A stretch of DNA of 64,000 nucleotides from a virus, in IMG/VR virus record IMGVR_UViG_3300029788_000344. One strand, 5' to 3'. Every line of letters starts with the position of its first letter. Within the stretch, counting starts at the first letter, position 1. The position numbers were made by a program, and so were the translations under genes. The notes under the pieces were generated by a model. The model did no database searches. It saw only the letters and a list, made by a program, of their open reading frames with translations, and was not told where the DNA came from. Below, piece by piece: positions 20,255-42,482 of this stretch.

Positions 20255-21376
20255 TCAGTTGGTCTTTAGATATGAACAAGCCTGCTCGTAGTAATCAACG
20301 ACGGACGCATTACTGTATTTTTCGGCATCGCGCTCAAGCCTCTGCGAGCTGTACATATAGTACGAGATGGCGGAGTCATCATCAGGAGAAATGTAGCTGC
20401 CGAACTCATCTTCGTATATCCCAGCGGTATCAAGAACCAGGAGATTGGCGTACTTTGTGGTATCGTCGTTGTATCTGATGGCCTGAAGGAGATTCACCTG
20501 ATAGTGTTGGTATCTGTGATAAATCTCATGGCAAAGAACCTGTATCACGGAGTAGCCACCCGCTTCGGAATCAACAACGTAGTTATACGAAAGAGTAACC
20601 ACATCTTTTTCGCTATCGTACTGCCCAAGTAGACCTTCTTCCAAGTAAGCCAGTTCTAAGGCTGGAGCAGAGTCCTGCATTCCCAGGTATCTGCACTCAA
20701 TACGAATTATGGTCTCCAATACCTCGATCTTTTCTTCAAGAGGCAGAGATCCCCATCCTCCATCGGGGTCAATCTTTGCTACTGTTGCAATGTTGGCGGA
20801 AAGAGAGTTCTCGTAGTCTGGAATGTCGTTATATGATTCTGACAGGCTATACGCGATATCGCTGTAGCTGATTGTATAGTGTGAGGCAATCAAGACCTTT
20901 CCGCAAATACAAGTGCCTAACAGCACCACACAACAGATAACTCGAGATGCACGGGCGGCTTTTGTAACGAACACTTCACGTCTGATGCGAATACGCTTAG
21001 CCTGGTTCACCTTCTTTACAGCCCAGATGAGCCCGACGGCAACCGAAACGAAGCACCCGGCAAGAATCATGATTCGGATTGCCAATGAATATCTCCACAT
21101 GCTAATTGCTTCGTATGCCAGCACGGGCATCAAGGTTCCACTTATCAGACTAACCCAGTTTCTTTCAGCCTTCCATGAAAGGACAAGACTGCTTAGGGCG
21201 AGGACGGCAACAATAATCACTAATACCCAAATACGGCTTCCATATACAGAGAATGTTGTAAAACACTTTGCATAGAGAAACGCAAGCACTATTTCTATCA
21301 TGGCGAACAATCGGACAAATTGCTCAAACGGAATCCGATTGTTTACGATTCTATTCTGCCTACTCCTTCCTTCCAT
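20255..21376 (-). CDS. Polytopic membrane protein with an extracytoplasmic HExxH metalloprotease-like domain
   Basis: The N-terminal half is hydrophobic with about 5 TM segments. The C-terminal domain has VLCHEIYH. Confidence 0.5.
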   Translation of the reverse strand: MEGRSRQNRIVNNRIPFEQFVRLFAMIEIVLAFLYAKCFTTFSVYGSRIWVLVIIVAVLALSSLVLSWKAERNWVSLISGTLMPVLAYEAISMWRYSLAIRIMILAGCFVSVAVGLIWAVKKVNQAKRIRIRREVFVTKAARASRVICCVVLLGTCICGKVLIASHYTISYSDIAYSLSESYNDIPDYENSLSANIATVAKIDPDGGWGSLPLEEKIEVLETIIRIECRYLGMQDSAPALELAYLEEGLLGQYDSEKDVVTLSYNYVVDSEAGGYSVIQVLCHEIYHRYQHYQVNLLQAIRYNDDTTKYANLLVLDTAGIYEDEFGSYISPDDDSAISYYMYSSQRLERDAEKYSNASVVDYYEQACSYLKTN

Positions 21377-21408
21377 CTATCTCACACCTTTCTCACGCTT
21401 ATGAATAC

Positions 21409-22377
21409 TCAGAAGATATTGAAGAAGACCGATACAACATCAAGGCCAATAAGCAGCCAAAGAATGACTTTTGAAATCATCGTAACGGAGAAGAAGCAGA
21501 AGCAAGCGTATCCTGGCAAACCGGCGCGAAGGAGCTTTTGGCGGCACTTTTTATTGGTGAGCCATTTTCTTGCCACTTCGCTGATGCTGTCAACTCCACA
21601 CATTGCACTCAACGATGATTCCCCATCAAGCCCCGATGCTGGCAACAGGTTTACACCGGCAAGGATGACGTTGACATTTGCGACGGAGAACATAGTCCGC
21701 GACCACTGATAAGACTGCATCGCTAAAATGAGACAAATCCCGGCCATAAGGAGATTGACTTCAACCCCAGCCAACGCAAACTGTATCTTCTCAGCTTTCG
21801 TTGCATCTTCCTTATCCTCGTGGGCTACATATGCTCCGAACGGAATAATACCGAGGAGAAGGATTCCAGTATCGCTGATTTTATACCCATACGCAACTCC
21901 CGCAACAAGGTGTCCCAACTCATGAAGTGCAAGGGATAAAACTATGAGGGCATAATAAAGCCACCAGCTGAAGCTGTCCCCACTCTCTGCACCTTCCAAT
22001 GCCGTTACATATACGCTAATCGCAAAGGCGAGAATGGATACTGCGGGAAGAGCGGCATTTAGTGCTTTGAAAACCAGCCTTCCGGCTTGCAGTCTATTGC
22101 CAATAGGAAACAGAATAAAGCGGTTAAAGAGGCCGTTATCTTGAACAAATCTGGAAGTCCGAACCAGTCCATGTCGCTTCAGCTTGGGAAGTATCCGGCG
22201 TCCATTGTCCGGCAGATCCAAAGGGCGAGTACCATCTGCCTTCAGGAGGGCATCCCATAGTCTGCGGCTGATTTCAAATTCCTCCCCATCAGCGTTTTCA
22301 ATGAAATAGTGGGTGGCATCGGAACCTTCATACTGGAAGGTTCCGATAGACACGCCCTCTTTAAGGACCGGATACAT
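21409..22377 (-). CDS. M50 (site-2 protease)-like integral membrane zinc metalloprotease
   Basis: The motif LALHELGHLVAG sits inside a TM helix. Further TM segments are present with a downstream conserved Asp region. Confidence 0.5.
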   Translation of the reverse strand: MYPVLKEGVSIGTFQYEGSDATHYFIENADGEEFEISRRLWDALLKADGTRPLDLPDNGRRILPKLKRHGLVRTSRFVQDNGLFNRFILFPIGNRLQAGRLVFKALNAALPAVSILAFAISVYVTALEGAESGDSFSWWLYYALIVLSLALHELGHLVAGVAYGYKISDTGILLLGIIPFGAYVAHEDKEDATKAEKIQFALAGVEVNLLMAGICLILAMQSYQWSRTMFSVANVNVILAGVNLLPASGLDGESSLSAMCGVDSISEVARKWLTNKKCRQKLLRAGLPGYACFCFFSVTMISKVILWLLIGLDVVSVFFNIF

Positions 22378-22391
22378 TGCGGATCACCTCT

Positions 22392-24233
22392 TTACGACGT
22401 TTTAATTGTTGCCTTTCCACCAGCGTTAGTAACATCCTTGGCAAATTTCACAGCTTCGCTTTTGGTGCTAAAAGCGATATCAACCGGGAACTGAGCCAGC
22501 CTTTTCGCTGCCTTTTCGAGGCTTTCTCCTGTTGCAGAGGCGATTACTCGTGCAATTCTCGCTCGATTGCTTTGACCTTCTGTGATAATCACGTGATGCT
22601 TCTTATCTGCTCCCTGCTTCTTCCGCTCTGCCTCTTCCTCAGCTTCGAGTTCAGCGATTTTCGCGTCAATCCTCGAAACCAGGCTGTCGATATCCATTGG
22701 CCCATCAGACCGCGCTTCTTCAAAAAAAGGGAAGCCTGTGGGAACCGCAGAAGTTTTCCGTTCAGCGGAAAAACCCGGAAGAGTGGACTCCATCTGCTTT
22801 TTCTTGATTTCCTTGACCATAGCTTCGAAATCAAGCGATTTGAACGGTCTCCCGCTTGCGGTGGGCTTATACTGAGGGGCTTTCCATTTGGAGTTATCGT
22901 ACATCTCATCGTAGAAAGGAAGATGAGCAATGAACTTATACTGGCTGTCCACCATAACCAGTGCAGTGCCGGTGGGCATTGCAGCCAACTGCGACGCCGT
23001 AATCAACTGTTCCTTGATGATATGACCGCTGTTCTCAATCTGCTTCTCTCCGCAACGCTGAGCCCACTCGGTGAGGGTTTCCCAGCTGTTAGTGGAAAAG
23101 CCGATTGTAATACCGATGCAGGAGTTGATCGTTTCAGCCTTGCTCTTACCGTAGACATCAACGAGCTGAGCGTTACTCTGAAGAACCAGCATCAGCCTCA
23201 TATTCCGGCTACGGCTAGCCACCATCAGATTGGGCAGAGAGGGGATGCTCTTACCAACCGAGCCAAGTTCCTCCAGGATGATGTTCACCCTGATCGGAAG
23301 CCGACCGCCTTTCTCCTGTGCAACACGGATAAGGTGCTGTGAAACCTGAGAGACGAGCAGACCTGAAAGAGCATCATACACGTCGGTTTCATCGGGGGTA
23401 ATGACCGTCAGAATGAAAGGACGGTTTACATCGATGTCCATAATGTTCAGCGTATCGTCGCTGAGCATTTCCATGAGACCTTTGCTGCGGCTGAAGACTT
23501 CGAGACCGGAGGCGGCCACACTGTGAATGGAAGCCCTCGTCTCGTTGGGAGCGGTAACATAGGTTGCGAGGTTGCGTTTGGCCAGAGAATCAAGGGGGAG
23601 ATGCTCGTAAAACTCCTTCAGGATAGTGTTACTGGGACCTCCAAAGCGAATCTCGGATTGTTCCATCATAACCGCAACACTGTCAAGATTGATGGTTTCC
23701 TTTCCTGCGGTCTCAAACAGCCCATAAGTCAATCCTTTCGCGTAATTCACGGAGGAGTCCGTCCAGAACTTGTCGGAATGACCGTCATAGGGATAAACGC
23801 CATTCCAAAGCTCGCTGAGCATGGAGCTTGCAATATCATTATCATCGGGATCTTTGGAGCAAAAGAGACGATACGGAGTACTCAGCGGGTTCCACTTGGT
23901 AGGGCTCTTGCGAGGGTTGCGGAAGTCAACGCAAAAGACCTGATAGTGTTCAGGAATGTAGCAGGCATTCTTTTTATAGCCCTCGCCTTTGGGGTCGAGC
24001 ATGATGAGGCTTTCCCCCTTTTTGAGGATCTCTCGCATATACGGAAGGCTGCAACACTGGCTTTTGCCCTTGCCGGTACGACCAATCACCGCAATGTGCG
24101 ACTCACTGTCATCAGAGTACTTCCTGCCGTTTTCGACATACACCACCGGACCGGCACCGTTCACTGGGTCCGTGGTTTCGTGAAACCTGCGTTTGATTTC
24201 GTTTACGGTATTCCAACGCTCACTTCTGCTCAT
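22392..24233 (-). CDS. VirD4/TraG-family ATPase (T4 coupling protein-like, soluble) with a ribosomal L7/L12 C-terminal-like domain
   Basis: Walker A reads AVIGRTGKGKSQCCSLPYM. The TraG-type Walker B region reads ILEELGSVGKSIPSLPNLMVASRSRNMRLMLVLQSNAQL..YG. No N-terminal TM segment is present. The C-terminus RIARVIASATGESLEKAAKRLAQFPVDIAFSTKSEAVKFAKDVTNAGGKATIK resembles the L7/L12 C-terminal domain. Confidence 0.7.
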   Translation of the reverse strand: MSRSERWNTVNEIKRRFHETTDPVNGAGPVVYVENGRKYSDDSESHIAVIGRTGKGKSQCCSLPYMREILKKGESLIMLDPKGEGYKKNACYIPEHYQVFCVDFRNPRKSPTKWNPLSTPYRLFCSKDPDDNDIASSMLSELWNGVYPYDGHSDKFWTDSSVNYAKGLTYGLFETAGKETINLDSVAVMMEQSEIRFGGPSNTILKEFYEHLPLDSLAKRNLATYVTAPNETRASIHSVAASGLEVFSRSKGLMEMLSDDTLNIMDIDVNRPFILTVITPDETDVYDALSGLLVSQVSQHLIRVAQEKGGRLPIRVNIILEELGSVGKSIPSLPNLMVASRSRNMRLMLVLQSNAQLVDVYGKSKAETINSCIGITIGFSTNSWETLTEWAQRCGEKQIENSGHIIKEQLITASQLAAMPTGTALVMVDSQYKFIAHLPFYDEMYDNSKWKAPQYKPTASGRPFKSLDFEAMVKEIKKKQMESTLPGFSAERKTSAVPTGFPFFEEARSDGPMDIDSLVSRIDAKIAELEAEEEAERKKQGADKKHHVIITEGQSNRARIARVIASATGESLEKAAKRLAQFPVDIAFSTKSEAVKFAKDVTNAGGKATIKTS

Positions 24234-25021
24234 TTCACTTCGCTCCTCTCTGCATTATTGTGCCAACTGGTAATCATAGATTTTAGGCTACTTTCGTCAA
24301 CAGTAGGGATGAAACCCGAGAAGTCGGCGAAATGGACAAGCGCATCAGCAGTGGTAATTGCGTCCTTAACGCTTGCAATACAGAACTCCGAAACCATATC
24401 TGTAAGCACGGCGCGGAATACATTTTCATGCTTGATCTCAATGCCATGCTCCTCAACCGTCTTGATAATCAAAGCGCAGATATCTTCCTTGGTATAAGGT
24501 TCGACTACGAGACGCTTGATGTTATCAACGGTTTCGCACAGCTTTTCCAGGAGCTTTTCTTCGTTCCTGTTGGGAGTCGTATGGACAAAGAAGATAACGC
24601 ATGCGTGCTCGCATACCCTCTTGCAGTTCTTCATGAACTCGGAAAGCTGAGTCTCACCGAGGTGAGCAGAGACACCGCTGATATCCATGCCGATAATATT
24701 GCAGTATTCGTTGGTATACACAGCGGCGGAGTCGATTGCGGCGAATGCCTGCTTGAGCTGCTGAAGAGAGCCATCAAAGGCGATTTCGATATAGTCATCG
24801 AGACCGCTGGTGAAGCTCAGGGCGCCTGCTTCCTTGTACTTGTCGGTCATGTATTCGACCAGAGTCGTCCTACCGGAACCGGGGTCGAGAGGAATGATAT
24901 AGTGCTTCGGGCGAAGGCCACACCTCTTATACATATGGGCATTGTTGCATGTACTCTCGATCTCTTTACAGGGGGTGGCAAGCCCAATGGGCTTAGTGAT
25001 GTCATAGTGTTTCATATCGTG
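24230..25021 (-). CDS. P-loop NTPase-like hypothetical protein
   Basis: The motif IIPLDPGSGRTTLVEYM is present. The stop overlaps the VirD4-like start (ATGA). Start set at the MKHYDITKP ATG behind GGAGGC; the track ORF begins at 25066. Confidence 0.45.
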   Translation of the reverse strand, partial: HDMKHYDITKPIGLATPCKEIESTCNNAHMYKRCGLRPKHYIIPLDPGSGRTTLVEYMTDKYKEAGALSFTSGLDDYIEIAFDGSLQQLKQAFAAIDSAAVYTNEYCNIIGMDISGVSAHLGETQLSEFMKNCKRVCEHACVIFFVHTTPNRNEEKLLEKLCETVDNIKRLVVEPYTKEDICALIIKTVEEHGIEIKHENVFRAVLTDMVSEFCIASVKDAITTADALVHFADFSGFIPTVDESSLKSMITSWHNNAERSEVK

Positions 25022-25028
25022 CCTCCAT

Positions 25029-25619
25029 TCACCATTCGGAAATAGGATCGCCAACCTTGTCCACAAGGCCGTATTTGAGAGCTTCTTCTGCGTTCATGAT
25101 GTTGTCGCGCTCGGTATCATTTTCGATCTTCTCGGAAGACTGTCCGGTACAATCAGAGAAAATCTTGTTGAGTTTCGCTCTCGTTTTGAGGATATGTTCG
25201 GCATGAATGCGAATGTCTGTGGCCTGACCGCTTGTTCCGCCAAGCGGCTGATGGATAAGAACCTCAGCATTCGGCTGGCACCAACGCTTACCCTTTGTTC
25301 CGGCGGCGGCCAGAAGAAAGGCTCCCATACTTGCCGCCATGCCGCAAGCGACAGTAACAACATCGCATCTCAATGTCTTCACGGTATCGTAGATGCTGAA
25401 ACCGGCGGAGACCGACCCTCCCGGACTCTGAATGTAGATTGTGATATCATCTTCCGAGTCTCTGGCAAGACACCTGAGGGCGGAGTTCATTACCGTGGCT
25501 ACGTCTTCATCGATTTCACCTGTGAGAGAAATCGTGCGATGGGCGAAGTCGATGTCCAAAGGCGCCAGCATCATGTCCTGACCATTGAGATTAACGGCCT
25601 TCTTCATCAGATAGTTCAT
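25029..25619 (-). CDS. clpP: ClpP-family serine protease (ATP-dependent Clp protease proteolytic subunit homologue)
   Basis: The catalytic Ser motif is [31 protein letters not shown], the His motif is LIHQPLGG, and the Asp region is [23 protein letters not shown]. The length is 196 aa. Confidence 0.85.
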
Positions 25620-25822
25620 ACAATCAAACCCCCCTTATTCTTGCTCACACCCGTTAAGAACCGAGATTCCTGTTCGGACATCTGGTCCATGAGGATAATC
25701 TTCTTTTCAGGGACATAGATTTTCTTCTTTGCCGTAACGATCAGAAAGTTGGGCGATTCTTCAATGACCAAGTCCTTCAGCTCCATGTTCCCGATGCTCA
25801 TGATTCCTTCATAATTCTTCAT
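25616..25822 (-). CDS. Small hypothetical protein (68 aa), translationally coupled to clpP
   Basis: Start set at the MKNYEG ATG behind AAAGGATGA. The stop overlaps the clpP start. The track ORF begins at 26062. Confidence 0.35.
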
Positions 25823-25937
25823 TGTTCTCATCCTTTCTATCTTGTTGTCTCTGAATACGGAGACATCAAGCAAATCTCCACAAGAAGACATTGTTTGTTT
25901 TTGCTTACATCCATCAATACGGAAGATTACGAAAAAT

Positions 25938-25975
25938 CTCCAAAAGAAAAGAAGAGAGCGGGGTTGCTCTCTTCT
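25938..25975 (-). terminator. Rho-independent terminator (minus strand) separating two operons
   Basis: The stem GAAGAGAGC/GCTCTCTTC is 9 bp with a 6-nt loop. A T-rich tract (TTTTCTTTTGG) follows on the minus strand. It lies after the 26050-26754 gene. Confidence 0.5.
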
Positions 25976-26049
25976 CAGTTTCAGACAAAGCGGATGAGGA
26001 ACACAAAGAAATTCTGGAATGGATCGAAATCTAATTAAGTAGCATCCTC

Positions 26050-26754
26050 CTAGTTTCCCCACAGGGCGTTCCCGCCTGTGTGCCCGACAGAATGATCATC
26101 TTGTGATACTAGGTCAAAACTACCTGTTTCAGGATTGTGCTGCCATGTGAAACCCTCAGGCGTATATCCCTGCGGGTAATCCATTCTTTCCATTGCTCCA
26201 AAAGTTATGCCCTGCAGTTTTTCGGGACTATCATACATATGATCCTGAAAATCCTCTCTGCAGGCGCTGAACTGCTGGTGAAGGCTCATATCGTTCGCAG
26301 CACTTCCAAGTTCAACGTGGTGCTTGCTATCAAATTCGGGGAAAACCCCCTCGACAGATAGCCCATCGGTAAGCTCCGCTGTTCGTCTTTCAAACGAGAC
26401 GCCGTTTTCAGATTCAAGGCCATCGAGAGCCATGTTGCGGGTGGTTATTGGAATGGAGTTGCCTGGTACGAATTCACCTCCATCATAATGCCGCTCAATA
26501 TAATCGGCGGCTTTGTCAAAGCCATAAGAGCGAGCATAATCTGCTGCTTTTTCTGCTTCGGATTGAATATCACTGTCACCGAATGCTGACGTCAACGAAA
26601 GGTCTGGAGTAGCTCCAGCGCCGATGCTTTCAGCCGTGCCAATGTTGATATCATCTGTTTCTGCGGGATCAAAATCAGTCCAATCACTCGTCTCTGGCAC
26701 ATCGATCCCATCAGTTTCAGAAAATTCTGTTGATGTGTCATTGAATTCATTCAT
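26050..26754 (-). CDS. Acidic hypothetical protein (234 aa)
   Basis: The protein is D/E/T/S-rich (pI clearly acidic). It is the last gene of the long operon. No motif was recognised. Confidence 0.4.
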   Translation of the reverse strand: MNEFNDTSTEFSETDGIDVPETSDWTDFDPAETDDINIGTAESIGAGATPDLSLTSAFGDSDIQSEAEKAADYARSYGFDKAADYIERHYDGGEFVPGNSIPITTRNMALDGLESENGVSFERRTAELTDGLSVEGVFPEFDSKHHVELGSAANDMSLHQQFSACREDFQDHMYDSPEKLQGITFGAMERMDYPQGYTPEGFTWQHNPETGSFDLVSQDDHSVGHTGGNALWGN

Positions 26755-29290: not shown

Positions 29291-29300
29291 TTAAGTCCTC

Positions 29301-29930: not shown

Positions 29931-29962
29931 AGAATCACCACCTTTCTAAGGATATGATACGA

Positions 29963-30514
29963 TTATCGATTTCTGGGAGGCAAAGGCTTGCTGGCTGTAG
30001 CCTGGTGCGGCATACGCGCGGAAATGGGATTATGAGGCTGAAGACCAGTTGCACGATCGCTGTGATTCTGAACTTCACGAACAGACTGGCTGCTCGGTTC
30101 CGCAGGAATGGAAGCAGAATAGACGCCCTGTCTCTGTTGCTTCAGCGCGGCATTGATCAAAGGGATCAAAGCAATCAGGCAAACTAGAGTTGTGATTATG
30201 AAAGCGAAGACCGCCGACCTTACAGATACGTCAATTCCCAAAAGCAAGACGGAAAGAGCAATCACAGCGGTTTCAAGGATACAACAAACGACGGAGAGTC
30301 CAGCTGCTTTGCGAAGGTTGCTGTTCCAGTACGTTACGAGGTATGCAACAGGGATTCCAACAGTGAGAAGTGTGCCGCCAATGTACACTGCGAGACGAGC
30401 TGTTGCCTCTGCAGGGGCGAGCCACCAGAAAAGAAACTGGGGGATCAAAACGATGGCTGCAAGGACGGGGATCAAAGAGTAGTTTTTGCGTGTCATTTTC
30501 ATCATTCCTTTCAC
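29963..30514 (-). CDS. Integral membrane protein (about 5 TM, 183 aa)
   Basis: The protein is strongly hydrophobic throughout. It abuts the next gene with zero spacing. Confidence 0.45.
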   Translation of the reverse strand: MKGMMKMTRKNYSLIPVLAAIVLIPQFLFWWLAPAEATARLAVYIGGTLLTVGIPVAYLVTYWNSNLRKAAGLSVVCCILETAVIALSVLLLGIDVSVRSAVFAFIITTLVCLIALIPLINAALKQQRQGVYSASIPAEPSSQSVREVQNHSDRATGLQPHNPISARMPHQATASKPLPPRNR

Positions 30515-31612
30515 TTAAAATCTATAACCGCAGATGGGGCAAACGCTATTGCCACGCATCACGTTTCCGTTACACGACGGGCAACGCTTGTACCGATCAG
30601 GCATGGGCGGAGGCGATTCCGCAGACGAGGTGTTTCCCTGGGCGTCAGACGATGCACCGCCAAACATATCCGTGTGCCGAGTCATTTCGGTCAGCGGTTC
30701 CCGCAGCGCCGGAAGCATCTGTGAGAGCATCATCATCTGCATCATCATGGGAGCCATTCCGCCAGAGTTCCCGTTGGAATTACATGCAGCGCCACCAGTA
30801 GGAGCCTGCCCTCGAGAAGGAATTCCCGTCATCATTTCACCAAGAGTGCGGTTATTGACGTTACCGTTCCATACTCTTTGTAGGTTATCCAGTTCGAGGT
30901 CGGTTCTGGTTTTCCCGCCGGCATACTCCTGCTCCAGGCTATAAAGTCTCTGCATCTCTGAATTGGGAACATTGATGGCCACAAGGTCAAATCGCTCCAG
31001 CTTGATACCGTACTCAGACATGCCAGACCGAATTGCAGTCGTTGCCATGTTTCCAATATGGGAAAGCTGGCTGTTAAACTCCGGGATTTCCAGCTTACTG
31101 ATCTCCCTGGAGATGGCTTCCCTAATGGGGGCAAGGACCATCTGTTCCACACACGGATCAATATCCTCATCCGAAAACGCAGAGCTGTAACTTCCGACCA
31201 GCTTTGTGAGAACCTTCAGAGGATCGGAGATTGAGAAGGAAAGCTTGCAAGATGCAAGCGCTTTCATTGTGAGACGGAAGCGATGCTCCCGGAAAGGAAA
31301 CTCTCCAGTGCCGAGCTTGACAAACTTCGTTTTCTCCGTCGACACAAAGAACACAGACACCGTGGTTCCGGTGTCTCCGTGGGTCAGAATGTTGCGAAGC
31401 CTTACAAAGAAGGGATCAACGCCTGTGAAGATTTCGTATCTGCCGGGGCCATAGGGGCGCGAAAGCGTACCGTTGATAGCAACGAACGCAGTGGTTCCCG
31501 GAGGGACAACCAGAATACTCCCGTTGACAATCACGGAGTATTGTCCGCATACATCCGGCTGAATTCGGATTAAACCGTTCCCGCCCGGATCTCTGATGAT
31601 TGATTGGTACAT
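30515..31612 (-). CDS. SPFH/band-7-like domain protein with a C-terminal zinc ribbon and a Met/Gln-rich linker
   Basis: Sequences of this YQSIIRDPGGNG...GIKLERFDLVAINVP type are usually annotated as SPFH-domain proteins; this is recalled from memory rather than searched. The C-terminus has CPSCNG...CPICGY. Confidence 0.45.
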   Translation of the reverse strand: MYQSIIRDPGGNGLIRIQPDVCGQYSVIVNGSILVVPPGTTAFVAINGTLSRPYGPGRYEIFTGVDPFFVRLRNILTHGDTGTTVSVFFVSTEKTKFVKLGTGEFPFREHRFRLTMKALASCKLSFSISDPLKVLTKLVGSYSSAFSDEDIDPCVEQMVLAPIREAISREISKLEIPEFNSQLSHIGNMATTAIRSGMSEYGIKLERFDLVAINVPNSEMQRLYSLEQEYAGGKTRTDLELDNLQRVWNGNVNNRTLGEMMTGIPSRGQAPTGGAACNSNGNSGGMAPMMMQMMMLSQMLPALREPLTEMTRHTDMFGGASSDAQGNTSSAESPPPMPDRYKRCPSCNGNVMRGNSVCPICGYRF

Positions 31613-31639
31613 AGTCTCATCTCCTTGTACTTATGATGT

Positions 31640-32614
31640 TTATTTTACGGCCAGGTTTTTCAGAGTGGGATGATAATAGAGCCGGTGATTTCCGCTTATC
31701 CGTTCTTCTGAGAAGGCCCTTTGCGCTTCTTTCAGGCAATCTCCAGACGAGGGACGGTAACTAAAGTGAATCAGTATCGGCGATATGCCTCTCTGCGAAT
31801 CCTTTTTAAGCCGCGCCTTAAGATCGCTATAGGAATGAACACACAGACCATGATGGCTATAGTAGCTCAGTGCTTCCGATGTGCATTCGGGAACGCGGGC
31901 ACATTTGAAGTCGTAATGATCGCTTGAAATCTGATCATCCGACAGGTTCAAGTAATCGAAGCGTACGATCCCGTTCTCAGTTCCATCCCAAGTGACATCA
32001 CAATGGACGGGAGTCCCATTGATCCATGCAATCGTCCAACAATGCCAGCCGCCCGTTTTGGTTCTGCCATAAACCTTGATACAGGGGATGCCGATTCGCC
32101 TGAAGCACAGGAGCAGCAGTGCGTTTTGACCGTCACACACCCCCGCTGAGAGCAGGATCGGCCCCACAATGCTGTGGTCTCTCACATCTCCATTGTTTGT
32201 ATATACGATGCTTTTGGCGATACGTTCGTAAACAAGCGCTTCTCGTTCAAGCATGGAAAGATCGGCCGTTCCACGAACGATCTGGAAAATTTTTTTCCGG
32301 AGCTGCTGCCTGATTCTATCAATAATCTCAGGGGCATACAGGATTGGGTACTCCAGAGTGCCGGTCCGACCTCTACGGGTGAATTCACTCTGAAACCCTA
32401 GAAAGAAGAATTCCGGGCGATCGTCCCTGATCGCTTTGTAGGCTGCAAAGCAATCAGATGCAGATGTTTCTGGATTACTTATGGAGAATGTCGTCTTACC
32501 TGAGTAATCCCCCCGGAGAAGCTGGGCATTGATGCGGTCATAGAACGCCTGCCCCTGACGAGTGAGGAATCCCCTATAGTATTCAGAACCCAGCTTCTCC
32601 GGTATCTTCACCAT
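31640..32614 (-). CDS. Transglutaminase-like cysteine peptidase superfamily protein
   Basis: The Cys-His-Asp triad context reads GVCDGQNALLLLCFRRIGIPC ... GGWHCWTIAWING ... HCDVTWD. Confidence 0.65.
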   Translation of the reverse strand: MVKIPEKLGSEYYRGFLTRQGQAFYDRINAQLLRGDYSGKTTFSISNPETSASDCFAAYKAIRDDRPEFFFLGFQSEFTRRGRTGTLEYPILYAPEIIDRIRQQLRKKIFQIVRGTADLSMLEREALVYERIAKSIVYTNNGDVRDHSIVGPILLSAGVCDGQNALLLLCFRRIGIPCIKVYGRTKTGGWHCWTIAWINGTPVHCDVTWDGTENGIVRFDYLNLSDDQISSDHYDFKCARVPECTSEALSYYSHHGLCVHSYSDLKARLKKDSQRGISPILIHFSYRPSSGDCLKEAQRAFSEERISGNHRLYYHPTLKNLAVK

Positions 32615-32620
32615 TATGAT

Positions 32621-33484
32621 TCACTCCCTTCTGCCCTTGGGAATCACCAGCTTGATCTTCAAGCACCCCTTACCATCAATACGGGTGTGCAGTCTGATAT
32701 CTCCAGCATAACCGCGTGTGCGAAGGCACTGACTGGTAAGGCGAACGATTTCATCGGTAGGAGGAATCAGGCGCTTGTCTTCGCTGAGATTCTCCTGAGG
32801 AGCTACGCCACGCGAAAAAACAATGATTTCCGCCTCGGCAAAGTCTTTGCCAATGCTGCCAAGCATCTTCTTCCGAATGGGGTCGCATACGAAGATACAG
32901 ACGGGAGACGATGCTGCGCGTGCAGCACCACTCACTTTGTCGGTTCCACTGTAGAACACGCCGAGGTCAGGGTGAGTGTGTCCTTCCAAAACGAACTCCG
33001 AAGGTCCACAGAGCTTAAGAAAAGGGTCAACCTGGTAACCGAAGGCATCCGTATTGAATTTGGATTCGTTTCTCAGGAACTCCTCACGATGATATTCGAG
33101 AAAATCGAGTCCCGGATTGTATTCTCCATTGGGACCAAGGTTTGATGCTCCGACCGGATTACGATTCATGGTCTGGATCTCGATGATGTGGCTGATAATC
33201 GTAATCACGTTACCGTCATCATCGACCAGAAAATGGCCCATCCCATAGAGTTTCTGCTCATAGACATTCATCGGGGATCGTCTTCCATATGAAATGATCG
33301 AGTTAAGCTCCTGTTCGGGTTCGGGAAGGATGATAACCTTGTTGCGTCCTTTGCCATGCCTTTCCTTGACATACACATCACCGCACTTGCTTTTGATGAT
33401 GTCCAGAGCTTTTTTAAGGCTGCATACCGGATAAGTTTTGGGCTCCGAAGGACGCCTGGTAGGCATAGGGGTATAATTGGTCAC
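32621..33484 (-). CDS. JAB/JAMM (MPN+) metallopeptidase with a roughly 130-aa N-terminal extension
   Basis: The JAMM motif reads EGHTHPDLGVFYSGTD (H-x-H-x7-S-x2-D). An upstream glutamate is present. Confidence 0.7.
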   Translation of the reverse strand: MTNYTPMPTRRPSEPKTYPVCSLKKALDIIKSKCGDVYVKERHGKGRNKVIILPEPEQELNSIISYGRRSPMNVYEQKLYGMGHFLVDDDGNVITIISHIIEIQTMNRNPVGASNLGPNGEYNPGLDFLEYHREEFLRNESKFNTDAFGYQVDPFLKLCGPSEFVLEGHTHPDLGVFYSGTDKVSGAARAASSPVCIFVCDPIRKKMLGSIGKDFAEAEIIVFSRGVAPQENLSEDKRLIPPTDEIVRLTSQCLRTRGYAGDIRLHTRIDGKGCLKIKLVIPKGRRE

Positions 33485-33500
33485 AATACTTCATCTCCTC

Positions 33501-34133
33501 TCAGTGGTGTCTGCCGGGAAGGGGCGGAGGTGCGGTCACAGGCTTGGCTGTCACCTTGCGAGGCGGAAGGGCTGTCAGTTCAGAGGCATAAAGCAGTTTG
33601 GGATGAATCATGGGGAAACGTTTGGCAGCAACACCATCCTTATGCCACTGTGCCACGCTGCTATTTGCCATGCTTTCATATCGAGTCACACCGGGATCGT
33701 GAATCATATCGCGCACGAGCTTGTCCACGACTGTAGTCAGGGAACTCGTGAAGGGAATCCAGGTGTCAATGCAGGCGCTCCCGGAGCGAAAAACATTAGG
33801 ACTCGCAAGATAATGATCCGAGGCATACGAGGCCGATACGGATTTCAGCGGATAACCGGGATAGCAAATGATATCCGCCGTCATAGATTCACAAGCTTTA
33901 GGCGTAGAGTCCTCGTTTGTGGTGAGGTAATGCGAAGGGGCCTTAACCGTCACCTTGAGGTGCATCGCCTCGCCGGTTTTCGCCTGAACCCTCTGAATCG
34001 TTACATACTTGGGGTTGTATTTCCGGACGATTTCCTGGTAATCATTCTTCAAAGCCTCGGCAGAGTCTCCTTCGGTGATGGAGACTTCTCTCGTGTGACC
34101 GTATTCATCGGTATAGTTGGTTGAGTAACTCAT
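33501..34133 (-). CDS. UBC-like E2 ubiquitin-conjugating enzyme homologue
   Basis: HYLASPNVFRSGSACIDTW aligns to the eukaryotic E2 active-site block HPNI..NGSICLDIL, with the catalytic Cys in GSACID. It sits between the E1 and JAB genes. Confidence 0.55.
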   Translation of the reverse strand: MSYSTNYTDEYGHTREVSITEGDSAEALKNDYQEIVRKYNPKYVTIQRVQAKTGEAMHLKVTVKAPSHYLTTNEDSTPKACESMTADIICYPGYPLKSVSASYASDHYLASPNVFRSGSACIDTWIPFTSSLTTVVDKLVRDMIHDPGVTRYESMANSSVAQWHKDGVAAKRFPMIHPKLLYASELTALPPRKVTAKPVTAPPPLPGRHH

Positions 34134-34146
34134 GTTGAACCTCCTT

Positions 34147-35418
34147 TTAGAATTTATGGATTTCGTGCATTTTCAGGTGATCCTTATCGAGCGCAAAGAC
34201 TGTCCTAGTGATCTTCTCGGTATCCAAAAAGTCAAGAGCTCCGTTACGCTGAATCACCTCGATATGGGCGCCAAGCGGATACCCCAGGTCGTACAGTGTC
34301 ATCTTCTGGATTTCTTCACTGCAGCCGAGGTCAAAAGCATGCAGGATCTCGCCACGAGAGAAGGTTGCACTGTTATGAGCGCGTTTCCCCTGGGTGCTAC
34401 ACTTATCGCACAGAAGATCGTTAAGAAAGACACGCCCCTCATGCTTCATCACCTTGATGGCGGTCCCACACGAATGGCACACATCATCCACGATAAAGCC
34501 GGCATGGACAATCTTCCTGTAATTCAGGCGATGAACAGACATCTCAAAATCCGCCGTGCCGAGGATAGCAGCAATCTGATCCATTGCCTCCTTCAGAGTG
34601 ACATCTGTAACGTTACCATGAAGCCATTCGATTCTTGCGGGCGGATGGATTGCACATCCGGGGCAATTACGCTTCCGCAAGGGGTGAGCAACGCTCAACT
34701 CCAGGTGAGGGTAGGCTGTATAGGTCAGTCTACGATTCATCACGCCGTCATGCCCGATGATGTTGGCTCTGAGCTGTTCAGCACTGAGATGCGCGGCCAT
34801 GGAGCTGGCAAGGTTGGATGTACGGACGATTTCATTGACACCGTCAATTTGTCTAACCTGCGGCCCGACACAGGATGTCCGAATGCTGCTGTCCTTCATC
34901 CACCCCTCATCAATCAAGCACCGAAGGCAGAATTCGGTATTGTCCAGAATCACGCTCTGTGCCATTTCATCATGGGTTCCATCCATGATGACAATCGGTC
35001 GCCGATCTTCAGGAAGCTGTCGGATCAACTCGTTCAGAAGCACTTTGGCGTCGAAATTATCCACTGCCGCGACGACATAACTGTAATCAGCAAATGCCTC
35101 TGGACCGAGCTTACAAAGGTCGCCGTCGATACCGTTGGAAGTGCAGTCATCGTCTAGCAGTGGCTGGACTCGATCAGACGCACATTCCGCCTTGTTTCGT
35201 CCGGCATCTTCCGGCGTGCGGATCAGGCAGCCGTGTTTGGCTGCATTTTCAAGCGTGAAGCAATCGAAATCCATTGCGTCAGGAGAAAGCCCCATTTTAG
35301 CGAATTTCTCCATGAGATGTGTTCCTACCGCTCCGGTGCCGATAACCAGCACATGCAGATTATGGAACAGTGGGCGATACTCCGAGAGCTTCAAGGCATT
35401 ATAAACAACTTTGTTCAT
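34147..35418 (-). CDS. ThiF/MoeB/E1-like Ubl-activating enzyme
   Basis: The Rossmann fold reads HVLVIGTGAVGTHLMEKFAKMGL. The downstream E1-type D-x-D/N-R-like segment is present. The C-terminal CxxC pairs are NCPGC, HSCG and CDKC. Confidence 0.75.
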   Translation of the reverse strand: MNKVVYNALKLSEYRPLFHNLHVLVIGTGAVGTHLMEKFAKMGLSPDAMDFDCFTLENAAKHGCLIRTPEDAGRNKAECASDRVQPLLDDDCTSNGIDGDLCKLGPEAFADYSYVVAAVDNFDAKVLLNELIRQLPEDRRPIVIMDGTHDEMAQSVILDNTEFCLRCLIDEGWMKDSSIRTSCVGPQVRQIDGVNEIVRTSNLASSMAAHLSAEQLRANIIGHDGVMNRRLTYTAYPHLELSVAHPLRKRNCPGCAIHPPARIEWLHGNVTDVTLKEAMDQIAAILGTADFEMSVHRLNYRKIVHAGFIVDDVCHSCGTAIKVMKHEGRVFLNDLLCDKCSTQGKRAHNSATFSRGEILHAFDLGCSEEIQKMTLYDLGYPLGAHIEVIQRNGALDFLDTEKITRTVFALDKDHLKMHEIHKF

Positions 35419-35445
35419 GTTTGATTATCTTTCTTTTCCAGGCTG

Positions 35446-35874
35446 TCAAAGCAACTTCCCGTTGCTCTTAAATCGGTGCCCCCTGGAACAGCGGTAACAG
35501 TTCTCTCCGCTGTCCCAGAAGATCACCTGCCCCTCGCCCGGGACATTCCGGAGCTTATCAATAGGGCAGCACGGAAACTGAGTGGGTTTGATTCCACGGG
35601 GTCCATAGCCAGCCCCAGCCGTCCTTCGGGCTGCATTGGCGATTGCCGACGCGGAAGAACGGCGGGGCGGCAGTGCTCTTGCAGCAGAAGAACTGCGTGT
35701 TCTGGTTTGAGCATGGCTGACTGTTGGTGAGGGTATGCCTACATTGACCCGAGGCGGGAGCGGAGGAGGTACATTGGCAGTTTTTTCTTTGCGTCCCTTT
35801 TTCGTAATGCATGCGATGATGACTCCACAGGCAATCAATCCCAAACCGACAAGGATGCATATTGTCACCATCAT
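35446..35874 (-). CDS. Single-pass membrane protein with a Pro-rich linker and a C-terminal zinc ribbon
   Basis: The N-terminal TM segment reads MMVTICILVGLGLIACGVIIACI. The linker PPPLPPRVNVGIPSP follows. The C-terminus has CCPIDK...CYRCSRGH. Confidence 0.45.
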   Translation of the reverse strand: MMVTICILVGLGLIACGVIIACITKKGRKEKTANVPPPLPPRVNVGIPSPTVSHAQTRTRSSSAARALPPRRSSASAIANAARRTAGAGYGPRGIKPTQFPCCPIDKLRNVPGEGQVIFWDSGENCYRCSRGHRFKSNGKLL

Positions 35875-35891
35875 GTCAGCCCCCCTTGTAT

Positions 35892-36191
35892 TTACGCTAC
35901 GCCGGCATTGTCGCTGATTGCCAGGACATCACCCTCCTGCAGATCAAGTCCTCCTACCGTTTCATTGGTGTCGCTGGTAGATGCTCCGGTGCGCTTGTTT
36001 TCGAAGAGAATCTTGCTGTCGTGCGGATTAACCCCGATATCAACGGCATATTCCTGGAGAACCTGTCCGAGAGTGTTCGTGCCGTACACAGCGGCCTGAG
36101 GATAAGTCGTGCCGGTTACCTTGTTGAGCAGGTCGATCTCAAAGGCACTTTCGGCGGCGGCGAGGGCGCCGTCAATGGGATAGTTCGTCAT
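35892..36191 (-). CDS. Ubiquitin-like beta-grasp protein with a 2-residue C-terminal extension (...SDNAG-VA)
   Basis: The residues 20-99 align collinearly to ubiquitin (ours/Ub): [14 protein letters not shown] / [41 protein letters not shown] / [44 protein letters not shown] / [21 protein letters not shown]. Confidence 0.55.
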   Translation of the reverse strand: [99 protein letters not shown]

Positions 36192-36312
36192 AACTTTTAT
36201 CTCCTTTTGTTAAGTATTTTGTGGCTTCCCACGACTACAGCAGCGGTCACAGCTGCTGTAGTTTCGGCCGGTTGCCGTCCAGCTCTCGTTCAGATGGGAG
36301 GAGATCACGAAC

Positions 36313-36948
36313 TCAACAAGCGATGTCGTCAGAAGAATCCACCAACTCGAGATCTTCAAGATCCAGTTCGACATCATCGGGTCCACCATCGGGCTCCTCA
36401 TCATCGGAAGCACCAGTGGCATTCATCTGGGCTTCCATCATCTTGCGGAGTTCCTGAAGCCGCTGCATCAGCTCAGCAGGAATGCTATGCCCCTGGATAT
36501 CAAGCTCCTCCTCAGAGTAGAGTGCCTTCATGAAGATGCTGTACTCGGATTTGAGGATATGCATCATGCGAGCGAAAATCTCGAAAGCCATCTCGCCAAT
36601 GCCGTTATCGGGGCTATGCATGGGGAAGTCATACTCAACATTGATGTCACCATCCGTATCAAGATAGAACTTCATGTAGCGGATCTTGTGGTTGAGCACA
36701 TTGCAGGCTTCCATAACACGGGTTCTCTTCTCCGTGGGAGTGTTGGTGATCAGACCGAAGATGCCTGCCGTAACGTCGTTGTCATTATCGCGGCTGATGA
36801 ACCTCATGATCACGTTGGGCCCGCAGTCGACGGAAAAACCTGCCAGCAGCTGTTCGATGCCATGATGACTGACAACGTCGAACTTGACGCCGCGCTCCTC
36901 AAAGGTCTCTGCAATAAGGTTGGTTGCGTTGAATTCGTACTTGTTCAT
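36313..36948 (-). CDS. Hypothetical protein with a strongly acidic C-terminal tail (possibly a YbjN/T3SS-chaperone-like fold)
   Basis: Start set at the MNKYEF ATG behind AAAGGATG; the track ORF starts at 37101. The C-terminus reads DDEEPDGGPDDVELDLEDLELVDSSDD. The fold assignment is tentative. Confidence 0.4.
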   Translation of the reverse strand: MNKYEFNATNLIAETFEERGVKFDVVSHHGIEQLLAGFSVDCGPNVIMRFISRDNDNDVTAGIFGLITNTPTEKRTRVMEACNVLNHKIRYMKFYLDTDGDINVEYDFPMHSPDNGIGEMAFEIFARMMHILKSEYSIFMKALYSEEELDIQGHSIPAELMQRLQELRKMMEAQMNATGASDDEEPDGGPDDVELDLEDLELVDSSDDIAC

Positions 36949-37110
36949 TTTCGTACATCCTTTCGCTTTTAGTATTTTGGTGGGTTTGTGTTTGCTTTCT
37001 GTCCCTGTATACGGGAGCGTTTGGGGAATCTCCACTTTTTCAATTCTTTTTTGATTTCTGTGGTCGAGATATGAGAATATATCTCGTCTTTTCTCGACCA
37101 CAGAGTCTGT

Positions 37111-37845
37111 TCACCGACGCTTCGTCTTATAAGGGATAGCCACCCCGTCGACGATTTTGCAGATGTCATTAGCGTCAAACACACCATCGCTCTTGTCCTC
37201 GAAGCGGACATAGATTTTCTGCGTCCAGTAATCGTGGGGGATGGCATCCTCAACGATTCCGAATCCTCTCTTGGGATGGAGGATCTCATCGCCGATTTCA
37301 TAGTAGGCATAAGGGTTGCGTTCTTTGATACGGGTGAGAGTCTTGGAGGCAGTCTCAGAATCGACCGGCGCCTGATGCCACTTATTCAGATAGGCAAGCA
37401 CGTCGAATTCGACCACATCATCAGCGTTATATGCGGCAATCGCGTCAGTAAGGGACCACTTTTTGCTGATGGAGTCCGAATTGTTGTGGCAGCGGGTGGG
37501 ATCGGCACCGACCATCTTGCAAGCCCACTTCCAGTCATCCCCATGGGATGTCTCTCGACGGGAGTGGCCAATGTATCTTTCAAGATGAGCGACATCAACA
37601 TAGTAGTGGGCGTACTCATGCCGGATAACATCGATCACCTCGGCTTCCCCGGTGGTCGAGTCGTTGAAAAACTTACGGTTGAACCCGAACGCTTTAGGCT
37701 CAACATAACGGTAGTGCCCGAGGAACCACCCATAACTGTTGAAAGCGATGGGCAACGCAGCTCCGTTGAGTCCGGTTTTCTCATCCAGCTTGCGGATGAT
37801 GGAGCGAATCTTGTCCTCAGTCCAGGTTTTGGTGATAGTAGACAT
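37111..37845 (-). CDS. SprT-like (WLM/DUF45) zinc metalloprotease domain protein; first gene of the long operon
   Basis: The HExxH motif sits in the SprT context EVIDVIRHEYAHYYV with downstream His residues. Confidence 0.6.
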   Translation of the reverse strand: MSTITKTWTEDKIRSIIRKLDEKTGLNGAALPIAFNSYGWFLGHYRYVEPKAFGFNRKFFNDSTTGEAEVIDVIRHEYAHYYVDVAHLERYIGHSRRETSHGDDWKWACKMVGADPTRCHNNSDSISKKWSLTDAIAAYNADDVVEFDVLAYLNKWHQAPVDSETASKTLTRIKERNPYAYYEIGDEILHPKRGFGIVEDAIPHDYWTQKIYVRFEDKSDGVFDANDICKIVDGVAIPYKTKRR

Positions 37846-38706: not shown

Positions 38707-38741
38707 CCTCCCTATACAAGTGGAAAAGTGGATTATACCCG

Positions 38742-42459: not shown

Positions 42460-42482
42460 CTTCTTCCGAGTTGTTCACATTC

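Follow-up and report, generated by a model that had tools for sequence, protein, structure and literature searches.

A stretch of 64,000 nucleotides filed as a viral record (IMG/VR IMGVR_UViG_3300029788_000344; 'the window' below means the whole of it) carries on its minus strand an invariant core of 11 genes, about 10 kb long (36191-26050), in which a ubiquitin-like (Ubl) conjugation set is joined to a membrane platform and to a HerA-type ATPase translationally coupled to a WHH/HNH nuclease. It is carried by a gut Clostridium, on a defence island integrated at tRNA-Ser. The reading that we favour, at a little better than even probability, is that of a bacterial immune system of the ubiquitination-like type with a new architecture: Ubl conjugation at the membrane would control a HerA-nuclease effector, and the neighbouring genes would be separable modules. 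Gene content, protein folds and motifs, the hierarchy of synteny and the island context are the observations from which this reading starts.

The core is embedded in a longer run of genes, 37845-20255, which a preliminary description had taken for a single system of 26 minus-strand genes with gaps of 0 to 35 bp. The listing of open reading frames (ORFs) and a greedy gene call do give an unbroken, tight co-directional run over this interval, but the count of 26 was wrong, because these calls and the public gene calls on window-identical contigs give the same 19 long genes (21 if the gene for a 136-amino-acid (aa) protein, p136, and an 81-aa ORF before the next terminator are added). The intergenic gaps are indeed 0-33 bp, with the exception of one of 121 bp, between the YbjN-like and Ubl genes, and one of 227 bp, between the nuclease gene and the gene for a 68-aa protein (s68). 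Within the latter, beyond the nuclease stop (26050), an intrinsic-terminator-like hairpin with an 11-bp stem and a T-run (25949-25976) closes the core operon, and the proposed split into two operons at about 25.95 kb stands. The run as a whole has a hairpin of this kind on either side, at 37940-37913, just upstream of the SprT-like gene, and at 19376-19351; the position of the second implies that the downstream operon also takes in the p136 gene (19811-20221) and the 81-aa ORF. All features of the run, hairpins included, are on the minus strand. Sequence comparison resolves the 18 kb into three layers: the invariant core, a facultative s68-ClpP-P261-VirD4-like module, and the facultative M50-HExxH-p136 and SprT-YbjN sets. 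The order of the core genes is Ubl, transmembrane (TM) zinc-ribbon protein, E1, E2, JAB, transglutaminase-fold enzyme, SPFH protein, four-TM protein, zinc-ribbon/TM protein, HerA and nuclease.

These layers emerge from about 75 related loci, gathered by a HerA-alignment scan of 185,579 species genomes, a metagenome scan, a viral-contig scan and look-ups of E2 homologues, onto which all window proteins were mapped by tblastn (L-numbers are locus labels). Of the 46 loci that cover the whole core interval, 42 have the 11 core genes in the same order, at HerA identities down to 47%; in the other four, one gene is missing by tblastn or the four-TM gene is replaced. Neighbourhood conservation, which had been proposed as a check on the cluster, therefore holds for the core and fails for the ClpP/VirD4-like, M50-HExxH and SprT-YbjN genes, which are facultative. 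The system is rare and patchy. The species-genome scan gave 13 loci, a lower bound, all in Clostridia save for one short, probably mis-binned contig; the hosts include Ruminococcus, Oscillospiraceae, Lachnospiraceae, Butyricicoccaceae, Anaerovoracaceae, Eubacterium and the cultured isolate DFI.6.37 (L011). The exact E1 sequence occurs in 291 blocks of a public assembly collection, and the contigs that were read carry gut-type metagenome sample names. Three loci show individual departures from the standard core. L019 is without Ubl, E1, E2 and JAB, with a fragment of the TM zinc-ribbon gene directly ahead of the transglutaminase-fold gene; in L004 the HerA gene is split and a transposase lies beside the SprT-like gene; and L012 lacks the four-TM gene and encodes, between the zinc-ribbon/TM gene and HerA, a 226-aa protein whose N-terminus is Ubl-like.

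A complete Ubl/E1/E2/JAB set had been claimed in the preliminary description and is indeed present, Ubl and E2 being recognised by structure prediction and E1 and JAB by profiles and motifs. Pfam, NCBIfam and PADLOC return nothing for E2, Ubl or JAB, and these three proteins were for that reason examined separately. The Ubl (99 aa, 35892-36191) has an AlphaFold2 model of beta-grasp topology, with a predicted local distance difference test score (pLDDT) of 81, and its top Foldseek matches are SUMO, ubiquitin, the Bil Ubl 8tyx, ISG15 and NEDD8. Depending on the locus it is encoded as a single unit, as a head-to-tail pair or, in L010, by four separate genes. Its C-terminus, ...DNAGVA in the window, is conserved as -x-Val-Ala; two-repeat proteins have the head-to-tail junction GVA|ADEE, and the Ubls of L018 and L021 bear short extensions beyond -VA. 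The tandem and extended forms imply proteolytic maturation, as for polyubiquitin, and the conserved end, the junction and the extensions together imply an unusual C-terminal Ala.

The Ubl gene is preceded by a structured 5' leader (36192-36300), in which a CUCC:GGAG helix, pairing with the Shine-Dalgarno sequence, closes off three hairpins. This leader of about 100 nt has a minimum free energy of -36.3 kcal/mol (z = -3.79), 93% of cells are paired as against 18-57% in slid controls, and compensatory changes are found at five pairs. It is kept upstream of Ubl in loci where the upstream genes differ, and is repeated ahead of each of the four Ubl genes of L010. An Rfam search with it gave no credible match.

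The E1-like adenylating enzyme (423 aa, 34147-35418; Pfam ThiF 7.2e-15) consists of a single ThiF domain (residues 19-252) followed by a C-terminal zinc-binding domain. The GxGxxG nucleotide loop and the Mg-binding Asp (D120) are invariant, there are two CxxC pairs with a second Cys4 site in the C-terminal domain, and a near-invariant Cys183, in 'RTSC', occupies the crossover loop as in ThiF and MoeB and is the candidate catalytic Cys. Against the PDB the protein finds weak matches to TcdA and Uba1, and its sole PADLOC matches are weak ones to CBASS (an anti-phage signalling system based on cyclic oligonucleotides) E1-E2 models. This combination of loop, Asp, CxxC pairs, Cys183 and second Cys4 site characterises, as judged by motifs, a non-canonical single-domain E1 and not a plain MoeB. 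The cluster, with its complete Ubl/E1/E2/JAB set, is not a MoeB/ThiF cofactor-biosynthesis operon.

The UBC-fold E2 (33501-34133) gives an AlphaFold2 model with a pLDDT of 89.4, and the top 50 Foldseek matches in the PDB are all ubiquitin-conjugating enzymes; phmmer and profile searches of the PDB gave chance matches only. Throughout the family alignment the catalytic Cys121 is invariant within 'LASPNVFxxGxACIDxW', the counterpart of the HPN...C core of E2s, and the C-terminal tail carries two P-phi-P-x-R motifs. The E2 profile finds only 87 clusters among 1.84 billion representative proteins, and distant family members retain both the catalytic Cys and a C-terminal PPPLPxR motif. Two representative proteins of the wider family are unusual in build: P0232, a distant relative, is a 640-aa E1-E2 fusion, and P0248, of 3954 aa, contains 13 E2-like stretches. 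The JAB/JAMM metallopeptidase (32621-33484) has the exact JAMM motif HxHx7SxxD, in the form EGHTHPDLGVFYSGTD (HTHPDLGVFYSGTD), with invariant H169, H171, S179 and D182. In profile searches of the PDB it matches, weakly in every case, only Rpn11/PSMD14 and the Rpn11-like protein of the archaeon Caldiarchaeum, and it is the probable Ubl-processing and deconjugating enzyme. JAB is always followed, in the sister system described below as well, by the gene for a transglutaminase-fold Cys-His-Asp enzyme, peptidase or transamidase (31640-32614), for which Pfam Transglut_core (1.6e-6) supports the fold assigned earlier. Its C160, H191 and D206 are invariant, and a solved relative aligns over nearly the full length (PDB 9crn_A, 2.4e-16); no paper on 9CRN was found in the literature, and the structure is apparently unpublished.

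Four further core genes provide the membrane platform. A 142-aa zinc-ribbon protein (35446-35874), kept in all core loci and in the sister system, has an N-terminal TM helix (residues 5-23), a proline-rich linker with two LPPR motifs and a C-terminal Cys/His zinc ribbon. An SPFH protein with a C-terminal zinc ribbon (30515-31612), also in all core loci, had been recognised in the preliminary description and matches Pfam Band_7_1 (3.6e-16) and Zn_ribbon_3. It is followed by a 183-aa protein with four predicted TM helices and a cytosolic tail that ends in LPPR (29963-30514), a homologue of which is found in the sister system, and by a 209-aa protein (29301-29930) that combines an N-terminal CxxC...CxxC zinc ribbon, a helical TPR/BamD-like domain (weak BamD match) and a C-terminal TM anchor (residues 144-162) and is again present in all core loci. 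Separate zinc-binding modules thus occur in four core proteins (the TM zinc-ribbon, SPFH and zinc-ribbon/TM proteins and the C-terminus of HerA), and these might serve as Ubl readers.

A short linear motif, P-[LMIV]-P-x-[RK], connects five of the core proteins. It is found in the tails of the TM zinc-ribbon protein, E2, JAB, the SPFH protein and the four-TM protein, where it is kept in 80-97% of homologues (32/33, 28/35, 36/39, 46/48 and 39/46, respectively), and in 0-2% of homologues of every other protein, all module-2 proteins included; for ClpP, P261, the VirD4-like ATPase (VirD4b), M50, HExxH, Ubl, the transglutaminase-fold enzyme, the nuclease and the zinc-ribbon/TM protein the count is zero. 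Possession of the same tail motif by five proteins suggests that a common partner binds them all and that they come together at the membrane. Distant E2s still carry the motif, as does the sister system, and its persistence in the latter makes E1, the transglutaminase-fold protein, Ubl or JAB the probable receptor.

The output of the core is likely to be its last two genes. The 847-aa P-loop ATPase (26747-29290; Walker A GKSGVGKTT, Walker B LIDEAH) has an N-terminal domain of about 340 aa without a known fold, a Cys-rich C-terminus and no predicted TM helix. It had been called HerA/VirB4-like; the HerA half of that label holds and the VirB4 half does not, the profile matching HerA of anti-phage complexes (9c1m, 4.6e-7; 8xau, 8ziq, 8wiv), Sulfolobus HerA and DptH, with weak PADLOC matches to mad8, DndH and HerA. 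The gene behind it (26050-26754), which overlaps the HerA stop by 8 bp, had been passed over as encoding an acidic protein and is that of a WHH/colicin-DNase nuclease of the HNH superfamily (Pfam Colicin-DNase 3.9e-11, WHH 3.4e-7), whose acidic N-terminal third is probably disordered. The nuclease is most likely the effector. Loci in which HerA identity is just 56-66% still show 80-83% identity in the nuclease domain, and the HerA-nuclease pair is never found alone in the loci examined.

Related systems indicate which parts of the core can be exchanged. In the sister system (L123, L126, L127, L128) seven genes (Ubl, TM zinc-ribbon protein, E1, E2, JAB, transglutaminase-fold and four-TM) stand without SPFH, zinc-ribbon/TM, HerA or nuclease genes and face, on the opposite strand, a convergent pair encoding an HD_4 (RelA/SpoT-hydrolase-like) protein and a 400-aa protein. 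A further locus, L125, runs from HD_4/TGS through Ubl, TM zinc-ribbon, E1, E2, JAB and transglutaminase-fold to SPFH, where the contig ends. The content of the sister system implies that the Ubl-to-transglutaminase set and the four-TM gene form the ancestral conjugation module, with exchangeable output genes. On an environmental metagenome contig (SDBV01004095.1; L095, 5146-10971), JAB, an E2-like 145-aa protein, a ThiF E1 and a 931-aa HerA-like ATPase are followed by WD40 and kinase-TPR genes. This ATPase is about 29% identical to the window HerA, other relatives at that distance lie in unrelated contexts, and the locus is a second case, independent of the first, in which this HerA clade is paired with Ubl machinery. 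Exchange is also suggested at a finer scale by mosaic identities to the window in L005-L007, L023, L024, L026, L057 and L064, where E2 is 61% identical beside a JAB of 95-96%, Ubl 61-63% beside neighbours of about 90%, and E1 83% beside an E2 of 99%; such patterns point to cassette exchange within the operon, which is common in conflict systems.

These components can be arranged into a scheme. The JAMM peptidase would cut Ubl precursors, whether tandem or extended at the C-terminus, back to a free -Val-Ala end; E1 would adenylate the Ubl, hold it on Cys183 and hand it over to Cys121 of E2. E2, JAB, the TM zinc-ribbon, four-TM and SPFH proteins would dock on their common partner through the P-phi-P-x-R tails and gather at the membrane. 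When infection occurs or foreign DNA enters, an invader protein or one of the system's own components would receive Ubl at this membrane site; the mark may be read by the zinc ribbons, and the HerA-nuclease pair would be licensed to cut DNA, as in other HerA-effector immune complexes. JAB, the transglutaminase-fold enzyme or both could reverse the mark. We infer from the observations above in which order these reactions run, what Ubl is conjugated to, that the zinc ribbons act as readers and that the system serves in defence. A rare, patchy, island-borne distribution and mosaic identities, typical of conflict systems, favour an immune role, as does the repeated defence-island context, represented in the window by type 4 BREX, GmrSD, type I restriction-modification and SIR2 genes.

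Several points weigh against this proposal. An Ala in place of Gly at the end of the Ubl is unusual for an E1 substrate, and JAB and E1 are assigned from motifs and weak profiles. The conjugation target, the trigger, the link from Ubl to the HerA-nuclease pair and the binding partner of the tail motif are all proposals, and the defence role is argued from genomic context. The identity of the neighbouring ClpP-VirD4-like module to the window falls together with that of the core: in L020 and L067, the deepest branches, ClpP is 43-44%, VirD4b 36-37% and HerA 47-51% identical. Linkage of this module to the core is old, and M50/HExxH homologues flank the sister system too, so that co-divergence and flanking together leave room for a functional tie between core and proteases.

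Four rivals have to be weighed, which in falling order of plausibility are a single 18-kb system, membrane proteostasis, an exporter resembling a type VII secretion system (T7SS), and the transfer module of an integrative and conjugative element (ICE). The first is unlikely and yet the strongest of the four. It holds, with the preliminary description, that the whole 18 kb is one system, in which Ubl tagging feeds ClpP, the VirD4-like ATPase and the M50/HExxH membrane proteases. The second operon opens with s68 (25616-25822), which was detected only where the ClpP module is present or a short contig breaks off ahead of it; the s68 stop overlaps by 4 bp the start of a ClpP paralogue (25029-25619; Pfam CLP_protease 1.7e-64). 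P261 (261 aa, 24230-25015) had been listed as a P-loop protein; its Walker A is degenerate (GSGRTT), it has no Pfam or PADLOC match and as its sole family match a weak, sub-cut-off one to holA (clamp-loader delta subunit), and it is possibly AAA+-like. The 613-aa VirD4/TraG-like ATPase (22392-24233; Pfam T4SS-DNA_transf 2.1e-32, TraG-D_C 3.8e-19) has no TM helix and is at most 27% identical to plasmid VirD4 of the CD1115 family. Behind these lie an M50, site-2-protease-like, multi-TM membrane metalloprotease with HELGH and NLLPASGLDG motifs (21409-22377; Pfam 1.1e-15), a multi-TM HExxH protein with the motif HEIYH (20255-21376) and p136, which co-occurs with M50-HExxH in direct and inverted arrangements. 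The identities given earlier to ClpP, the TM-less VirD4-like ATPase and the M50-like protease are all sustained by these matches. The L7/L12-like C-terminal domain ascribed to the VirD4-like ATPase is without statistical support and was rejected (E = 0.38 against a neighbouring L12-like ORF, 0.21 against E. coli L7/L12).

Among the 52 loci informative for downstream content, having at least 3 kb downstream of the nuclease, 31 do have s68-ClpP-P261-VirD4-like directly behind it, usually followed by M50-HExxH-p136. This frequency favours a single system, as do the divergence of the module in step with the core in L020 and L067, the M50-like and HExxH-like genes near the sister Ubl system of L123 (where Dnd genes also lie nearby), and the classical partnership of SPFH proteins with membrane proteases or with those of the ClpP class (NfeD). 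The ClpP paralogue here has only a sub-threshold match to NfeD1b_N (2.2e-4, 21 bits against a cut-off of 40), lies five genes from SPFH and is absent in 40% of loci. What decides against one obligate system is that ClpP and VirD4-like genes are absent from the remaining 21 of the 52 loci, in which the 11-gene core is nonetheless intact, apart from the deletion variant L019. Among the 21, M50-HExxH directly follows the nuclease in L036 and L037, an inverted p136-HExxH-M50 is present in L011, L029 and L069, and ten have no module-2 gene at all and carry kinase-LRR, NACHT, SNF2, PP2C or Lon-like genes instead. The terminator between the operons and the absence of the tail motif from every module-2 protein point the same way. 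In L114 (7184-11357), moreover, a soluble VirD4-like ATPase, ClpP and an HExxH homologue (E = 2e-25) stand beside two TIR-domain genes without any Ubl gene, and this set may be an autonomous system; a 258-aa protein beside the VirD4-like gene of this locus has no detectable homology to P261. The variable content after the nuclease, variation upstream and L114 together imply that the 18 kb is a set of nested modules, with only 11 genes invariant across the roughly 75 loci, and that the single-system reading of the preliminary description does not hold.

The second rival, improbable in our judgement, is a non-immune pathway for membrane protein quality control or stress, in which Ubl tagging at SPFH microdomains would deliver substrates to proteases, loosely as in pupylation and the proteasome or in HflK/C-FtsH. 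The SPFH scaffold, the membrane anchoring and the array of peptidases (JAB, transglutaminase-fold, ClpP, M50, HExxH and SprT-like) would suit it, as would the chaperone-like YbjN protein encoded upstream. The last of these, labelled at first an acidic-tail protein, is YbjN/TY-Chap-like with an acidic tail (36313-37101; Pfam YbjN 7.5e-7; the public calls start at 36948, giving 211 aa), and ahead of it the SprT-like HExxH protein named in the preliminary description (37111-37845) reaches Pfam significance at the cut-off itself (9.4e-6; 25.9 bits against 25.6). Both genes are upstream of the core in some loci only. Quality-control systems with a housekeeping role are as a rule widespread and inherited vertically; this cluster is sporadic, has mosaic identities and is borne on an island with an integrase/tRNA element beside BREX. 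The coupling of an invariant and highly conserved DNase to HerA also speaks against proteostasis.

A third rival, very unlikely, casts the cluster as a T7SS-like toxin exporter, with the HerA/FtsK-type ATPase and membrane proteins exporting the WHH nuclease as an antibacterial toxin and the Ubl as an accessory like YukD/EsaB. WHH and colicin-DNase domains are typical heads of polymorphic toxins (PMC3482391), and ESX/T7SS operons bring together an enzyme of the pumping-ATPase superfamily, membrane proteins and a beta-grasp protein (PMC1779556). The Firmicute T7SS (EssC, YukD/EsaB) thus shares with the core an FtsK-HerA superfamily ATPase, a beta-grasp protein and membrane partners. However, the ATPase here matches HerA/DptH and has a single P-loop domain, unlike the multi-domain EssC; a true E1/E2/JAB cascade, lacking in T7SS, is present; no WXG100 or LXG match is found by Pfam in the cluster proteins; and the nuclease has no predicted TM or hydrophobic segment. 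Across the related loci no conserved immunity-like ORF follows the nuclease, which favours a controlled intracellular effector over an exported toxin.

The weakest rival, an ICE or mobilisable-element transfer module with the two VirD4-like proteins of the window as coupling proteins, was rejected as extremely improbable: a tyrosine integrase beside tRNA-Ser, two VirD4/TraG-family ATPases and the conjugative coupling proteins of the CD1115 family that are their nearest annotated relatives speak for it, and against it are the absence from the 64 kb of relaxase and VirB4 (Pfam, over ORFs of at least 160 aa) and of VirB6/8 and a cell-wall hydrolase, the lack of a TM anchor in both VirD4-like proteins, which are at most 27% identical to plasmid VirD4, the absence of any E2 homologue from 72,556 plasmid records (tblastn) and of any plasmid match to the region (megablast), and the many unrelated flanking contexts of the core. 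What is shared with conjugative type IV secretion systems is the VirD4/TraG Pfam domains of the neighbouring module, with the difference that the proteins here are soluble and that relaxase and VirB4 are missing. Pfam searches over the window ORFs also find no capsid, portal or terminase, as the preliminary description had observed for these and for relaxase. It had raised a secretion or DNA-translocation apparatus as an alternative, which is disfavoured by the HerA-clade ATPase, the missing immunity gene and the absence of E2 from plasmid and phage records alike (50,697 of the latter by tblastn). The 11-gene core has no megablast match among phages, and the viral-contig scan found only one IMG/VR contig with the system, in the same island layout as the window; a phage origin was rejected.

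Among described systems, full-text searches of the literature found no account of this gene combination, as had been supposed from the start. PADLOC, proposed earlier as a check, brings no model to threshold, giving weak generic E1-E2, mad8, HerA and DndH matches for the 19 cluster proteins and nothing for p136, and NCBIfam gives nothing above its cut-offs. Bil operons encode BilA (Ubl), BilB (E2), BilC (JAB) and BilD (E1); the Ubl may have several beta-grasp units, and a deubiquitinase is required to expose its C-terminus (bioRxiv 10.1101/2024.11.21.623966). The core resembles Bil (types I and II) in having separate Ubl, E2, JAB and E1 genes in one defence-island operon (36191-32621), and the Ubl model matches the Bil Ubl structure 8tyx. 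It differs in comprising eleven conserved genes (seven in the sister system) against the four-gene unit of Bil, the additions being the transglutaminase-fold enzyme, membrane and zinc-ribbon proteins, SPFH, HerA and nuclease; in the -Val-Ala end of its Ubl; and in its order of Ubl, TM zinc-ribbon, E1, E2, JAB. The Bil E1, reportedly described by Chambers et al. in 2024, is said to combine an inactive N-terminal and an active C-terminal adenylation domain with a mobile CYS insertion, whereas the E1 here has a single ThiF domain with Cys183 in the crossover loop. Searches with E1, E2 and JAB (phmmer and profiles) of all PDB chains, the Bil entry 8tyx included, recovered no Bil protein. PADLOC gives no Bil match for the cluster, the presence of Bil models in PADLOC 2.0 not having been confirmed. 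In operon size, E1 architecture and sequence relationship, the core departs from Bil.

The defining features of two other conjugation families are also absent. Bub (6E/DUF6527) systems rely on proteins fused as Ubl-E2, JAB-E1 or E2-E1, on a DUF6527 serine protease (BubE) and on oxyester chemistry (bioRxiv 10.1101/2024.11.21.623953). The core shares with them bacterial E1/E2/Ubl conjugation, multi-domain Ubl proteins and a presumed immune or stress role, but its genes are separate, its E2 has an invariant Cys, and no DUF6527 match is found in the 19 cluster proteins or p136. Type II CBASS Cap2/Cap3 likewise couples E1/E2-type conjugation to a JAB peptidase, and there these regulate an immune effector; here E1 and E2 are unfused, the Ubl is a dedicated one, there is no cyclic-nucleotide effector, and neither Pfam nor PADLOC finds a CD-NTase. 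On the effector side, the core resembles the pairs HerA-DUF4297 and SIR2-HerA, and DndFGH/DptH, in the placing of a gene for a HerA-clade hexameric ATPase beside one for a nuclease or toxic effector, and the nearest solved HerAs belong to anti-phage HerA-effector complexes (PMC11291478; bioRxiv 10.1101/2024.10.24.620088). It differs from these two-gene systems in nine extra Ubl/membrane genes, in a WHH/colicin-DNase effector in place of DUF4297 (a Cap4-like nuclease) or SIR2, and in the 340-aa N-terminal domain and Cys-rich C-terminus of its ATPase.

The surroundings of the core are those of an integrated island. A tRNA-Ser (14831-14919) abuts the gene for a tyrosine integrase (15049-16326), and the two mark one end of the island that carries the cluster; near the integrase are a LexA/S24-like repressor, a sigma-like protein and an HTH_17 protein, and the LexA box GAAC-N4-GTTC does not occur in the window. 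To the left of the island, the plus strand (1313-12674) encodes GmrSD, a type I restriction-modification system with an R subunit and an M-S fusion, and a SIR2-domain protein of 1021 aa. At the other side, type 4 BREX occupies 50506-60923 on the minus strand, with BrxP (58575-60923), a 1404-aa BrxC-like ATPase, PglZ (52013-54331) and BrxL (50506-51999); a DndA-like cysteine desulfurase and a WYL regulator adjoin it (48084-50335), and at its far end is a 943-aa protein with an RNA polymerase alpha C-terminal domain and sigma-70 region 4 (60984-63815, minus strand). Elsewhere, related loci are also found near Dnd, TIR, NACHT, kinase-LRR and SNF2 genes.

Between the cluster and BREX lies a second VirD4-like module (40039-46796, minus strand), encoding a 499-aa protein, a soluble VirD4-like protein (587 aa), a TPR-like protein (341 aa) and proteins of 548 and 180 aa, none of which has a PADLOC match. 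L001 has a divergent version (48% identity) beside its core, and L013 an inverted one. The two VirD4-like proteins of the window, both lacking predicted TM helices, have in common a helix '...DxLVxRIDxxIAELE'. Next to the cluster (38425-39089, minus strand) are a small ORF with a match to the ribosomal L7/L12 C-terminal domain (2.6e-5) and an adjoining HD-domain fragment; the L004 locus has a longer HD gene with a transposase inserted beside it. Lon-like proteases in the range of 1,000-1,100 aa recur near these systems: one of about 1060 aa stands next to the core, behind an approximately 80-aa protein, in L011 (inverted), L019, L033 and L036, that of L036 having two AAA+ domains and Lon_C by Pfam; in the sister locus L126 a 1098-aa AAA+/Lon_C protein lies behind a 367-aa gene.

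If membrane-localised Ubl conjugation does control the HerA-nuclease pair, the system would be a fourth bacterial family of Ubl conjugation beside CBASS Cap2/3, Bil and Bub. Its wiring would be different, being membrane-tethered, always including a transglutaminase-fold enzyme and having exchangeable outputs (HerA-nuclease here, the HD_4 protein in the sister system), and it would link two immune principles, Ubl tagging and HerA-effector complexes. PADLOC 2.0 and NCBIfam miss the system even though the identical E1 is found in 291 assembly blocks, and the presence of the core in the cultured isolate DFI.6.37 (L011) makes it testable. The E2 and the polyubiquitin-like precursors look unusually eukaryote-like. 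A more far-reaching and tentative view, which we regard as possible though not probable, is that the core is a ubiquitin signalling assembly in the fuller sense, comprising writer, eraser, reader and effector, with polyubiquitin-like precursors, conjugation on an SPFH platform, zinc-ribbon readers, a HerA-nuclease that is switched on, a transglutaminase-fold enzyme as a novel sort of E3 or isopeptidase, wiring through tail motifs, and an E2 that is nearer in predicted fold to those of eukaryotes than to any bacterial E2 yet characterised. Were this so, it would constitute a previously unknown class of Ubl-dependent immune signalling, relevant to the origin of ubiquitin signalling.

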